In this document: positions 6,891 to 33,185 of the stretch, one piece after another
Layout: each line of letters begins with the position of its first letter
Numbering within the stretch: the first letter of the stretch is position 1
NCBI GenBank assembly: GCA_016212635.1
Contig: JACRFR010000045.1
Span: 1 to 37,857, forward strand
Reading direction: 5' to 3'
DNA from: Candidatus Liptonbacteria bacterium
GTDB taxonomy: Bacteria > Patescibacteriota > Minisyncoccia > UBA6257 > 2-01-FULL-56-20
Length of the DNA stretch: 37,857 nucleotides
The notes under the pieces: generated by a model
Seen by the model: only the letters and a program-made list of their open reading frames with translations
Told to the model about the DNA's origin: nothing
Databases searched by the model: none
Made by a program: the position numbers and the translations under genes

Positions 6891-7367
6891 ATGAGCACTA
6901 TCTTAGTCAAAACAATCTCGATGGGGGTCGCCTCTTTGGCGCTCATCTCGCCGAGTTTCATCAATCCGCAATTCAGTTCCAATACTCCGAGTGCTGTAGC
7001 GTCGCAAGCGGATTTCTCCCAACCGACGCCGACCACTCAACCAGATGCCCTGGATGTTTGGTTGGAGCGTCTCGCCGAGTTGGAATCCCACGGCAAGGCC
7101 CAGTTGAAGATAGTAGATCATAACGGTTGGCATTCTTACAGTTGCTTGCAATTCCAAATGCCCACCTTTAAGGAGTACGTGGTTAAATACAACTTATTGC
7201 CGGAAGCAGAAGAGCCGGAATTGGAGAATATGATCTATGATTGCGATTTTCAGAAACAGCTGGCCAAGAAAATGCTGCTGGACGATCCCAGCAATTGGCA
7301 ACATTGGTATTTCTCGGTGATAGAAAAAGGGTTGGGCTTGCCGCCAATACATCTGGCAGAAAAATAA
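6891..7367 (+). CDS. Secreted small protein, possibly lysozyme/transglycosylase-like
   Basis: It has an N-terminal signal-like segment. ELESHGKAQLKIVDHNGWHSYSCLQFQ loosely resembles Rpf/SLT-type E-S...G...LQF cores. Confidence 0.4.
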   Translation: MSTILVKTISMGVASLALISPSFINPQFSSNTPSAVASQADFSQPTPTTQPDALDVWLERLAELESHGKAQLKIVDHNGWHSYSCLQFQMPTFKEYVVKYNLLPEAEEPELENMIYDCDFQKQLAKKMLLDDPSNWQHWYFSVIEKGLGLPPIHLAEK

Positions 7368-7380
7368 TGGAAAAGGCAGC

Positions 7381-7587
7381 TTACGCTGCCCTAAGAGTTA
7401 CCGCGACCACGGCCGACATCAGCGTTTCGGTGCGCTGATATTCGACCACCTGAATCGCGGTCACCTCTTGACCTTGGCCGCTGGCGGCCAAGGAAATTAG
7501 AGAGTTGAGGCGCGCTTCCAGCGCCTCATGTGTCGGCCGCTCATCCAGCGCGGCAGAGCTGGATGCCGAGAAAAAGCGAATTTTCAT
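7381..7587 (-). CDS. Small hypothetical protein (68 aa)
   Basis: AAGGAGG sits 7 nt upstream of the ATG at 7587. The longer ORF to 7629 is probably not used. Confidence 0.5.
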   Translation of the reverse strand: MKIRFFSASSSAALDERPTHEALEARLNSLISLAASGQGQEVTAIQVVEYQRTETLMSAVVAVTLRAA

Positions 7588-29692: not shown

Positions 29693-30265
29693 ATGCCCCG
29701 GAGCTTTCACTCACGAAGCGGTCTGACTCGGGATACCCTGCTTCGCCTCGCGGCGCTCGGTGTTCTGACCATCGCCGCAGGAACTTCTCCATACTTTTTA
29801 TCCAAGTTGGCACAGACTTATTTCCAAGACAAAATCCGAGAAACTATTCGGGCGCGGGCTAAAAAGCTTCGAGAGTTGGAGAGGCGCCAGTTGGTCAACT
29901 TTCAAGAGCTGGCGGACGGTAAGATTCGAATCGAGCTGACCCACCACGGCAAGAAATTGATTCGGCTTTATAATCTAGACGAGATGAAGTTGACGCGGCC
30001 CAAGCGTTGGGATGGACGCTGGCGGATAGTTGTCTATGACATCCCAACCGGGCAGAAACGAGCCAGCAACGCTTTTCGGGAGAAACTGAAGCAATTAGGA
30101 CTCTACCCCTTGCAACGCAGCGTTTGGATCTCGCCTTTCGAGTGCCTACCGGAGTTGGAATTTCTCGCTACCGTTTTCGAGATTGATATCGATAGTTGCC
30201 TTTGTTATTTAATGGCAACTCAAGTGCCCCGCGAGAAAGAACTGCGAAGATTCTTCGGCTTGTGA
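29693..30265 (+). CDS. PaaX-like / Cas2-fold putative transcriptional regulator
   Basis: RWDGRWRIVVYDIPTGQKRASNAFREKLKQLGLYPLQRSVWISPF matches the PaaX-type (Cas2-like ferredoxin fold) core. It is preceded by a winged-helix-like segment. Confidence 0.55.
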   Translation: MPRSFHSRSGLTRDTLLRLAALGVLTIAAGTSPYFLSKLAQTYFQDKIRETIRARAKKLRELERRQLVNFQELADGKIRIELTHHGKKLIRLYNLDEMKLTRPKRWDGRWRIVVYDIPTGQKRASNAFREKLKQLGLYPLQRSVWISPFECLPELEFLATVFEIDIDSCLCYLMATQVPREKELRRFFGL

Positions 30266-31590: not shown

Positions 31591-31731
31591 TCGTTCCTCG
31601 CGTATCCGACATTTTCCATTTTATCCTTGAGCCGTCGGCCCTCCTTCGCTAAAGCTTCGGCGGGGCAAGTCGGAATTTCGCTATCCCCTTTTCACTACTC
31701 TCTACTCGCCACTCACTACTCACTTTCCTTG

Positions 31732-32025
31732 AGCCGTTGGCCGGATTTGAACCGGCGACCTACTCCTTCGCTTACACCTCCCCTTTTCCGCGAACTTATA
31801 CGGGAGGACTAGACTGTATCTTCTCCGACTCGAGTCGGAGCCCTTGTCAGTCGTTCGAGCCCCTCGATAGGCTCGGGGTAAACCGAGACATATTTGAGGT
31901 GCTACGGTCTTGGCCTGGTTTTGGCTTTTAACCGTCATTCGGGATTCAGACCGGCGTTGCCACCGGAATGGGCAGGGAGCGAGCGCCCCACCATGGAGTT
32001 GCTCTACCAGCTGAGCTACAACGGC
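31732..32025 (-). tRNA. tRNA-Thr (anticodon GGU) interrupted after position 36 by a 221-nt intron
   Basis: The 5' exon (32025-31990, 36 nt) is GCCGTTGTAGCTCAGCTGGTAGAGCAACTCCATGGT. The 3' exon (31768-31732, 37 nt) is AAGGAGTAGGTCGCCGGTTCAAATCCGGCCAACGGCT. Joined, they form a perfect 73-nt cloverleaf. Confidence 0.75.
31769..31989 (-). mobile_element. Group I-like intron in the tRNA-Thr anticodon loop
   Basis: The 5' exon ends in U, which can pair with G in a P1 hairpin (AUGGU|GGGG with CCCUGCCCAU). The intron ends in G. It contains GGCAACGCCG and GUCUAGUC, which resemble core segments of the Azoarcus/cyanobacterial tRNA introns as I recall them. Confidence 0.6.
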
Positions 32026-32049
32026 AACATGCTGTCCAGAACTTTTTTG

Positions 32050-32120
32050 AGTTTACTATTACTAAAGTGAATAGTCAAAATTTCGACTTTTTCGCTTTTT
32101 TCGACTTTTTTCGATGTCAT
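32050..32120 (-). promoter_or_regulatory. Candidate promoter for tRNA-Thr (TTGACT-17-TAAACT) with phased A-tract UP-like region
   Basis: -35 is the reverse complement of 32073-32078 and -10 the reverse complement of 32050-32055. Upstream on the minus strand: GAAAAAAGTC GAAAAAAGC GAAAAAGTC GAAATT. Confidence 0.45.
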
Positions 32121-32159
32121 TCAGGAAAGTGTTGACTACTACTACTACTAGGCGTATGT

Positions 32160-32534: not shown

Positions 32535-32951
32535 CTATTTTAACTTCAGATACTCCTCGATCACCGCTACGTCGCGCAGGTGTTTTTCCCGCCCGTAGGC
32601 CCGTTTGAAAGAAATCGTGTCGGGCAGACTGGCGAAAGCCACTCCGCTGATCATGTCCGCGCGCCGAACCAATTCCTCAAGCGTCGGGCAGAAATCACCG
32701 CAGTTCACGTCCAAATACAGCTCTAGGATTCCCTGCCGCAGGAATACCTGGTCCTGGCCGGGGTGATTCGCGTAGGTCCAGGGCAACACCTGCCAGCCAG
32801 CCGCCCGGTAGTGTTCGAAAACTTCCGGCGCGATTACAAGATCAATATCGTGAGCATCTTTCAGCCCCCGGACTGCCATCGGGCCGCTGCCAACCACCAC
32901 GTACTTCCCGGCAGGTAGGTCCAATTTTTTGATCTCGGCGATGATGTCCAT
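32535..32951 (-). CDS. Nucleotidyltransferase-fold protein (minimal NTase)
   Basis: VVVGSGPMAVRGLKDAHDIDLVI fits the G-S-G...D-x-D pattern of Pol-beta-superfamily NTases. Confidence 0.45.
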   Translation of the reverse strand: MDIIAEIKKLDLPAGKYVVVGSGPMAVRGLKDAHDIDLVIAPEVFEHYRAAGWQVLPWTYANHPGQDQVFLRQGILELYLDVNCGDFCPTLEELVRRADMISGVAFASLPDTISFKRAYGREKHLRDVAVIEEYLKLK

Positions 32952-32977
32952 TTGTCCCTACTCCCTACTCCCCATCC

Positions 32978-33053
32978 TGGAGCCACCTCCCGGATTCGAA
33001 CCGGGGACATACACTTTACAAAAGTGTCGCTCTACCAGCTGAGCTAAGGTGGC
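32978..33053 (-). tRNA. tRNA-Thr (anticodon UGU), CCA end encoded
   Basis: In the reverse complement: acceptor GCCACCT/AGGTGGC, anticodon loop TTTGTAA, T-arm CCCGG-TTCGAAT-CCGGG, U73, CCA. Confidence 0.85.
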
Positions 33054-33068: not shown

Positions 33069-33185
33069 CACCTCCCCTCGCCCCTCCTTAGAACAGGAGG
33101 GGGACTACACCTCCCCTCACCCCTCCTTAGAACAGGAGGGGGACTACACCTCCCCTCGCCCCTCCTTGGAAAAGGAGGGGAAATG
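33069..33185. repeat. 39-bp tandem repeat x3, each unit containing a CCCCTCCT-N7-GGAGGGG hairpin
   Basis: cacctcccctcgcccctccttagaacaggagggggacta is repeated at 33069, 33108 and 33147 (the last unit is diverged). Confidence 0.9.

Follow-up and report, generated by a model that had tools for sequence, protein, structure and literature searches.

Only a short list of host tRNAs has been published for bacterial group I introns. The tRNA-Leu(UAA) gene of cyanobacteria and plastids carries one in its anticodon loop, which lacks an open reading frame (ORF) and is fixed across a large clade. A second well-described group comprises the IC3 introns in tRNA-Ile(CAU), here called the Azoarcus type, with relatives in Betaproteobacteria. 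Within the Patescibacteria, or Candidate Phyla Radiation (CPR), group I introns in rRNA genes have been described in general (Tsurumaki et al. 2024, PMC11270868), and CPR tRNAs with group I introns were mentioned in passing, with the host tRNA left unnamed (Lui et al. 2021, PMC8172020). No description of a tRNA-Thr intron was found in full-text literature searches, and the papers on CPR rRNA insertions leave tRNAs aside. Here, an interrupted tRNA-Thr(GGU) gene is analysed that lies on contig JACRFR010000045.1 of a Candidatus Liptonbacteria bacterium (assembly GCA_016212635.1); the whole stretch of 37,857 nucleotides (nt) is called the window. The locus very probably represents a functional tRNA-Thr(GGU) gene that is interrupted, right after the third anticodon nucleotide (36/37), by a group I intron without an ORF. 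Among the group I introns that bacteria carry in anticodon loops, this intron and its relatives in effect make up a new family, which apparently is undescribed in the literature.

The interrupted gene consists of the following parts:

32025..31990, minus strand: 5' exon of tRNA-Thr(GGU), 36 nt, tRNA nucleotides 1–36, GCCGUUGUAGCUCAGCUGGUAGAGCAACUCCAUGGU, with the acceptor 5' strand, the D arm, the anticodon-stem 5' strand and A32 U33 G34 G35 U36
31989..31769, minus strand: intron, 221 nt, ORF-less, with GGGG at its start and GCG at its end
31768..31732, minus strand: 3' exon of tRNA-Thr(GGU), 37 nt, tRNA nucleotides 37–73, AAGGAGUAGGUCGCCGGUUCAAAUCCGGCCAACGGCU, with A37 A38, the anticodon-stem 3' strand, the variable loop, the T arm, the acceptor 3' strand and the discriminator U

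When spliced together, the exons were identified as tRNA-Thr(ggt) by ARAGORN and gave a canonical cloverleaf with the anticodon loop A-U-GGU-A-A, which bears out the preliminary description of this DNA, where exons of 36 and 37 nt had been proposed. CCA is not encoded in the 3' exon. Sequence comparison showed that the joined exons share G1-C72, C2-G71 and U73, which we take to be identity elements for threonyl-tRNA synthetase, with the neighbouring tRNA-Thr(UGU). When the 294 nt were folded as a single sequence, all four tRNA stems (acceptor, D, anticodon and T) persisted around the insert in the minimum free energy structure (z = -2.95).

On the window, the interrupted gene was absent from the default output of ARAGORN and from the matches of the Rfam tRNA model. 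ARAGORN with intron search, a check that had been suggested beforehand, recovered the gene at exactly 32025..31732 with a 221-nt intron, but shifted the boundary leftwards by 2 nt and so read the gene as Arg(gcg). Three splice registers are possible, namely Arg(GCG), Pro(GGG) and Thr(GGU). The Thr(GGU) register was chosen because it is the only one that combines an exon-final U with an intron-final G, and also because it is the register of all 93 parsed relatives and of intron-less genes in other samples. The same shift of 2 nt occurred in about a quarter of the relatives in the intron mode of ARAGORN (giving Arg(gcg) or Pro(ggg)) and was fixed by the U/G splice-site rule. The coordinates of the 221-nt insert after U36 with its final G, as first proposed, were thereby confirmed, and the 93 relatives agree with them.

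The anatomy of the intron is as follows, with P denoting paired and J joining segments, and RF00028 being the Rfam model for group I introns (Intron_gpI):

31971..31992, minus strand: P1 stem-loop, in which the anticodon G34-G35-U36 and the intron GGGG pair with CCCU-GCC
31947..31970, minus strand: P2 hairpin with a GCAA (GNRA) tetraloop, L2, at 31960..31957; its tip is GGCAACGCCG
31941..31943, minus strand: P3 5' strand CCC, with its partner GGG at 31843..31841
31904..31935, minus strand: P4 (ACGGU/ACCGU), A-rich J4/5 and J5/4, and a short P5 hairpin
31858..31903, minus strand: P6 and a lineage-specific extension, the P6a hairpin CUCGG..CCGAG
31848..31854, minus strand: P7 5' strand, A-(C bulge)-GACUG, complementary to 31816..31811
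31841..31847, minus strand: J7/3 (ACAA) and P3 3' strand (GGG)
31823..31840, minus strand: P8 hairpin CUCCGAC-UCGA-GUCGGAG, a plain helix
31811..31822, minus strand: J8/7 (AAGAUA) and P7 3' strand (CAGUCU), aligning to the RF00028 consensus GAAGAUAUAGUCu
31777..31807, minus strand: P9 stem (CCUCCC/GGGAGG) with internal elaboration
31769..31776, minus strand: 3' tail UGUAAGCG, with the final (omega) G at 31769

Judged by this predicted anatomy, the insert belongs to the group I introns. In its P1, U36 (31990) and a G (31973) form the U·G wobble that marks the 5' splice site; the omega G, a core with a P3/P7 pseudoknot, a P7 with a bulge and a G-C pair, and the J6/7-P7 and J8/7-P7 sequences were found as well. 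The G-C pair beside the bulged C in P7, invariant in the family, is presumed to form the guanosine-binding site. The overall architecture resembles that of IC3-like tRNA introns, as it is compact and ORF-less, has a P2 but neither P2.1 nor P5abc, and shows co-variation of the GNRA loop L2 with P8. The longest ORF that overlaps the intron encodes 72 amino acids and is not conserved.

Further support for this assignment comes from the core sequences. The P7 5' strand aligns to the RF00028 consensus AGACUAAA; more widely, CGAACGACUGACAAGGG aligns to the J6/7-P7-P3 consensus and AAGAUACAGUCUAGUCC to the J8/7-P7 consensus of the model. An intron in a Saccharibacteria 23S rRNA gene (L009), which was among the relatives retrieved by a core 16-mer (see below), reached 63.1 bits on RF00028, and in its alignment AAGAUACAGUCUAGUCC sits on the model's GAAGAUAUAGUCuaauc (J8/7-P7) and CAACGACUGUAAGG on AaAGACUAAAcGg (J6/7-P7-P3). 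The J8/7-P7 motif of the Thr intron is identical in this rRNA intron, and the J6/7-P7 motif nearly so. Taken together, the P1–P9 anatomy, the identity of core sequences and the covariation across some 70–90 relatives uphold the original suggestion of a group I-like intron.

Two details of that suggestion had to be revised. The U·G pair at the splice site stood, whereas the proposed pairing of AUGG with CCAU around a bulge did not. A P1 that includes the exon AU was rejected in favour of the register supported by the family, in which the intron GCC pairs with G34-G35-U36 and the next CA opens P2. The segment GGCAACGCCG, which had been likened to the core of Azoarcus introns, showed a chance resemblance only and is the GNRA hairpin tip of P2.

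Relatives were searched for with the 16-mer AGATACAGTCTAGTCC, the putative J8/7-P7 segment, in one genome per bacterial and archaeal species (596 Gb). At least 119 loci were found, and a few hundred matches are expected by chance in a collection of this size. Even so, in 107 of the 119 listed loci the match is embedded in one common arrangement, CCCGAACGACTGACAAGGG-hairpin-AAGATACAGTCTAGTCC-hairpin-GGTGTAAACG, with the 3' half of a tRNA behind it. ARAGORN in intron mode reported an intron-containing tRNA in 100 of the listed loci. Once the 2-nt ambiguity was fixed, each of the 93 parsed relatives proved to be a tRNA-Thr(GGU) with the intron after U36 and a final G, with intron lengths from 169 to 269 nt. 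R1, a covariance model of this intron family, gave 174.6 bits at the intron site and no second match in the window, which puts the observation far beyond chance; 104 relatives scored between 155 and 201 bits. The copy in the window is at most 70% identical to any listed relative.

Among the matches listed, about 100 species-level genomes were represented, nearly all of them labelled Patescibacteria. The labels among the carriers include Saccharibacteria, Paceibacteria, Nomura-, Taylor-, Harrison-, Vogel-, Uhr-, Lipton-, Kaiser-, Yanofsky- and Jacksonbacteria, Peribacteria and Pacebacteria. A tRNA-Thr host had been thought unusual for this kind of genome; with the same site occupied throughout this set, a tRNA-Thr intron is the norm for its lineage. 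In 654 kb of sequence flanking 92 relatives, no intron-less Thr(GGU) gene was found. Three carriers (L028, L039 and L054) are labelled as Gammaproteobacteria or Azotimanducaceae bins, and these may be mis-binned Patescibacteria contigs or cases of transfer outside the phylum.

Covariation was assessed in an unbiased MAFFT alignment of 68 diverse family members, on which the group I model with the P3/P7 pseudoknot was imposed. Standard pairs made up 93.1% of the cells, compared with 78.6% in column shuffles and 33–42% when the partners were slid by one to three columns. Double (compensatory) changes were present at 29 of 49 pairs, and the covariation score of 0.412 (versus 0.137) was reached by none of 500 shuffles. 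In P1, the anticodon pairs G34-C, G35-C and U36·G are invariant in all 68 sequences, and pairs on the intron side covary (GU/AU/UA/GC; GC/AU; GC/UA/AU). Compensatory changes were found at eight of ten pairs in P2 and at all five pairs tested in P8. In the 3 base pairs (bp) of P3, 100% of the cells are paired, and CG-to-UA switches occurred at all three pairs in some relatives. P5 covaries as well, as do the basal pairs of P6 (GC/AU; GC/CG; CG/AU/UA) and of P9 (UA/CG; CG/UA). RNAalifold, run blind on the same alignment, recovered P1, P2, P4, P5, P6, P7, P8 and P9 in addition to the anticodon stem, and this stem, which closes over the intron, shows compensatory changes in the exons (columns 1–3 with 270–272). 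The copy in the window retains every invariant column of the family, and 45 of its 49 modelled pairs are standard; in columns with at least 90% conservation, it deviates solely by the added P6a hairpin at the tip of P6.

A tertiary contact is suggested by the association between L2 and P8. In 28 of 91 members, L2 is GAAA (or AAAA/UAAA), and 26 of these 28 have a receptor-like P8 with an asymmetric internal loop (GCUAAG...UAUGC). The other 63 have a GYRA loop (GUAA, GCAA, GUGA or GCGA), and in every one of them P8 is a plain helix. Fisher's test gave p = 9e-21 for this association, a value that overstates independence as the sequences are related. The GCUAAG...UAUGC form of P8 follows the pattern of the 11-nt receptor, which is also visible in P8 of Azoarcus-type sequences. 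The copy in the window pairs a GCAA L2 with a plain P8, as the GYRA class does. Owing to this co-variation, the intron looks like a folded and selected ribozyme, unlike a decaying insert.

The Azoarcus type, represented by introns in tRNA-Ile(CAU) and their Betaproteobacteria relatives (loci L126–L228), resembles the Thr family in many respects. In both, the insertion lies right after the third anticodon nucleotide (anticodon at 35/37 and intron at 38/40 in ARAGORN), a guide sequence pairs with the anticodon, no ORF is present, the length is about 200 nt and the final nucleotide is G. A P2 with a GNRA tetraloop paired with an 11-nt-type receptor in P8, and a P7 of the form GACUx/xAGUC with a bulge, are further common features. 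However, the host anticodon is CAU there and GGU in the Thr family, P3 has about 6 bp there as opposed to 3 bp, J7/3 is 4 nt long and P4–P6 is shorter in the Thr family, and the distal pair of P7 is A-U there and G-C here. When R1 was run on 14 Azoarcus-type loci, none was found at E<=10, i.e., there is no detectable sequence homology. The view that the Thr family is a close relative of the Azoarcus type was rejected because R1 detects no Azoarcus-type intron.

The 23S rRNA intron of Saccharibacteria mentioned above comes from the same lineage. It shares the J8/7-P7 16-mer AGAUACAGUCUAGUCC exactly and the J6/7-P7 segment AACGACUG nearly exactly, and it gave a weak match to R1 (15.1 bits). In contrast to the Thr introns, it has an rRNA host, about 305 nt, a conventional P4–P6 (UGCGGG...) and a longer P3, and RF00028 detects it.

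Other tRNA introns of Patescibacteria, in Leu(CAA), Leu(CAG), Asp(GUC) and Tyr(GUA) genes, are found in the same genomes and are likewise insertions in the anticodon loop, of about 190–270 nt. Unlike the Thr introns, those in Leu and Asp genes are detected by RF00028 and not by R1; the former model gave 60 and 72 bits for Leu(CAA), 57 for Leu(CAG), and 45 and 34 for Asp(GUC). These Leu and Asp introns lie at 1885–2190 in L011, 2057–2361 in L015, 1892–2231 and 5485–5800 in L039, and 2661–2954 in L004, and several tRNA genes are interrupted per Patescibacteria genome. L017 has a tRNA-Tyr(GUA) gene on the minus strand (7162–7436) that is interrupted behind the anticodon by a group I-like intron of 192 nt, with the core GUAGAGACUAGAUACC ... 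AAAGAUAUAGUCC; the intron-containing tRNA-Thr(GGU) of this genome follows 22 nt downstream. This Tyr intron reached just 20.7 bits with R1 and had no match to RF00028 at E<=1. The introns of Leu, Asp and Tyr tRNAs are families distinct from that of Thr.

The cyanobacterial tRNA-Leu(UAA) intron, likened here by description, is a candidate parallel for long vertical inheritance. It differs in its insertion site, which is 34/35 within the anticodon, and in its host tRNA and lineage.

The proposed course of splicing would be as follows. Transcription would proceed along the minus strand, probably from a TTGACT/TAAACT site 24 nt upstream of the gene. The 221-nt insert would then fold into a compact group I ribozyme with P1, a GNRA-looped P2, a P3 of 3 bp, P4-P5-P6, P7, P8 and P9, in which P3 and P7 form a pseudoknot. 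By pairing of its internal guide sequence G-C-C with the anticodon G34-G35-U36, the 5' splice site would come to lie at the U36·G wobble. A free guanosine, seated at the G-C pair beside the bulged C in P7, would attack after U36. The terminal G (31769) would next occupy the guanosine site, and the 3'-OH of U36 would attack behind it, so that U36 is joined to A37 and a standard tRNA-Thr(GGU) is released. The transcription start, guanosine binding, catalysis and the independence of splicing in vivo from proteins are steps that we infer.

Several observations, both structural and from RNA data, weigh against this reading. RF00028 (Rfam 15), the covariance search that the preliminary description had called for, gave no match in the window at its gathering threshold, 50 bits, and in 31600–32150 a relaxed search gave none even at E<=10. 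The Azoarcus-type tRNA(CAU) introns of Betaproteobacteria, used as a control, score 48–63.5 bits on the same model, compared with at most 16 bits in the Thr family. Since the control scores well, small tRNA introns are within the range of RF00028, and the divergence of the Thr family is real. One relative (L001) aligned to RF00028 over its full length and through the same core motifs, with 16.0 bits and E=0.063 in a 271-nt search. The missed threshold is a limit of the reach of the model, and no defining structural feature is absent; taken alone, the failure of RF00028 would have led to a wrong rejection of the finding. As evidence against a group I intron, the preliminary description had named a missing covariance match together with a core that cannot be folded; RF00028 indeed found no match, whereas a P3–P9 core folds and covaries.

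Regarding the core itself, P3 with just 3 bp (4 in a few relatives) and J7/3 with 4 nt are both short by group I standards. P4 and P7 are fully complementary and invariant in all 68 sequences, and because of this invariance, covariation is silent on these two helices and speaks neither for nor against them. A metagenome scan for a distal P7 pair without G yielded one chance match and one member (L230), in which the change is uncompensated. The sole compensatory evidence for P7 is the difference between families, with the distal pair being A-U in the Azoarcus type and in the Rfam consensus and G-C here. The metagenomic member L230 (2375–2640) carries a mismatch without compensation in each of P3 (C·A), P4 (A·G) and P7 (U·C), and may be a decaying copy or stem from a low-quality assembly.

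No RNA run of the source organism was found, with RNA runs carrying 8–12% of the sampled words and the best DNA run 49%. Four metatranscriptomes were analysed over the region, and contigs in three of them contain the exact exon–exon joint 31768|31990 with 0 mismatches. The flanks of these contigs are unlike the window, so they represent intron-less genes in other organisms, which confirms the junction but not the reaction. The contigs were therefore rejected as evidence of splicing, and the search for spliced reads that had been advised yielded no organism-specific junction. The intron-less tRNA-Thr(GGU) in the three metatranscriptomes is identical to the joined exons (31730–31768 and 31990–32027) and has unrelated flanks. 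Moreover, the window covers 37.9 kb of the genome, and a second, intron-less Thr(GGU) gene is possible in the organism. From sequence, we infer that the intron is spliced. Function of the gene is argued indirectly, since exons and intron are conserved together, the anticodon stem shows compensation and the 654 kb of flanks hold no intron-less copy.

Three other explanations were considered. The insert might be a group I-derived intron without autonomous catalysis, which requires a host protein cofactor for its removal or fails to self-splice in vitro. Many natural group I introns depend on protein helpers, and the unusually short P3, the small P4–P6 domain and the great distance from RF00028 would suit such a case. 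The usual elements of the catalytic core are, however, all present and invariant, the L2–P8 contact, which stabilises an autonomous fold, has been kept up by co-variation, and Azoarcus-type introns of similar size are efficient self-splicers. Dependence on a cofactor thus appears unlikely. It is less plausible still that the locus is a tRNA pseudogene broken by a non-splicing insertion, such as the remnant of a miniature inverted-repeat transposable element or insertion sequence or another structured RNA gene, with ACC and ACU decoded by another tRNA. Such a pseudogene would fit with a gene that is missed by standard tools and has no Rfam group I match, and with the mismatches of L230. Against this, the same insert occupies the same nucleotide in about 100 species among the matches listed, the helices of the intron and the anticodon stem that encloses it show compensatory changes, the exons are intact, the copy in the window keeps all invariant positions and the flanks of the relatives lack an intron-less Thr(GGU) gene. 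Neither terminal inverted repeats nor a target-site duplication were found at 31769 or 31989, and a mobile element was rejected owing to the missing terminal repeats and the lack of a conserved ORF.

A different mechanistic class, i.e., a protein-spliced intron of the archaeal/eukaryal bulge-helix-bulge kind or a new class of ribozyme, might be brought to mind by the wealth of unusual RNA features in Patescibacteria and by the failure of RF00028 on the insert. The insertion site is 36/37, however, and not 37/38, the boundaries are formed by a P1 with U·G and a terminal G after P9, with no bulge-helix-bulge, and the sequences of the core match group I introns. This is the least probable of the explanations considered. 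A functional tRNA-Thr(GGU) gene with a group I intron is the favoured explanation.

For genome annotation, the gene is missed by default ARAGORN and by the Rfam tRNA model, and the intron by RF00028. As a consequence, carrier genomes seem to be without tRNA-Thr(GGU), and this seeming loss distorts estimates of the tRNA complement, of completeness and of decoding in a phylum known for its odd translation machinery. For RNA biology, the family is a natural collection of about 100 very small group I ribozymes (169–269 nt) with a minimal P3 of 3 bp. It also shows a natural swap between two solutions for the L2–P8 contact, in which either a GAAA loop goes with a receptor or a GYRA loop with a plain helix. 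With regard to evolution, a new host tRNA is added to the published ones, and the Thr introns together with those of Leu, Asp and Tyr make intron-bearing tRNA genes common in Patescibacteria. The guide sequence pairs with the very anticodon of the host tRNA, which ties the intron to one isoacceptor. A wider and more tentative reading, to which we give somewhat less than an even chance, would be that the tRNA-Thr(GGU) intron is ancient, ORF-less and mostly vertically inherited, fixed across much of the Patescibacteria (with carriers labelled Saccharibacteria, Paceibacteria/Parcubacteria lineages, Peribacteria and Pacebacteria), undescribed, and missed by Rfam and default tRNA finders. As part of the same joint reading, it would hold the place in CPR that the tRNA-Leu intron has in cyanobacteria, and the genomes would routinely be annotated without a tRNA that reads ACC and ACU.

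Upstream of the interrupted gene, the following features were located:

32078..32050, minus strand: sigma-70-like promoter candidate, TTGACT-17 nt-TAAACT, 24 nt upstream of tRNA position 1
32114..32081, minus strand: A-tract repeat UCGAAAAAAG, 3.6 copies with a period of 9–10 nt (Tandem Repeats Finder), adjoining the -35 hexamer
33053..32978, minus strand: intron-less tRNA-Thr(UGU), about 950 nt from the interrupted gene; context and not part of the element

The promoter candidate is a consensus match alone, agreeing with the consensus at 9 of 12 positions, and two such sites were seen compared with 0.5 expected in shuffles. A promoter with phased A-tracts had been claimed before, and this candidate, lying behind periodic A-tracts, agrees with that claim at the level of a consensus match. 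The A-tract repeat upstream of the -35 hexamer possibly acts in the manner of an UP element. The intron-less tRNA-Thr(UGU), which had been placed 1 kb away, was located at the position given. A run of CUAGUAGUAGUAGUAG is present at 32133–32150, upstream of the promoter region. GAGUAG-type runs of low complexity lie just downstream of both Thr tRNA genes (31692–31724 and 32950–32975), and a wetland metatranscriptome has a 37-nt contig (depth 180) that agrees with the run at 31692–31724 except for three mismatches. Directly upstream of tRNA-Thr(UGU), a 39-nt tandem repeat (33069–33180; 2.9 copies, 94% identical) contains a hairpin, CCCCUCC..GGAGGGG, in each unit.

The neighbourhood is made up of housekeeping genes, namely those for bL33, two NUDIX hydrolases, other tRNAs, an aminoacyl-tRNA synthetase of the asparaginyl/aspartyl type, a penicillin-binding protein and a Mur ligase. 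All relatives of the 908-amino-acid protein encoded in the window are from CPR, and sequence words of the window are present in groundwater metagenomes. The window begins inside a 16S rRNA gene, whose 5' end occupies 1–483 on the minus strand. Compared with the bacterial small-subunit rRNA model, this gene has two insertions of 87 and 126 nt, both within the first 280 model positions and typical of Patescibacteria. Between tRNA-Trp and bL33, an ORF of 190 amino acids (29693–30265, plus strand) encodes a PaaX central Cas2-like domain (PF20803, E=1e-17).

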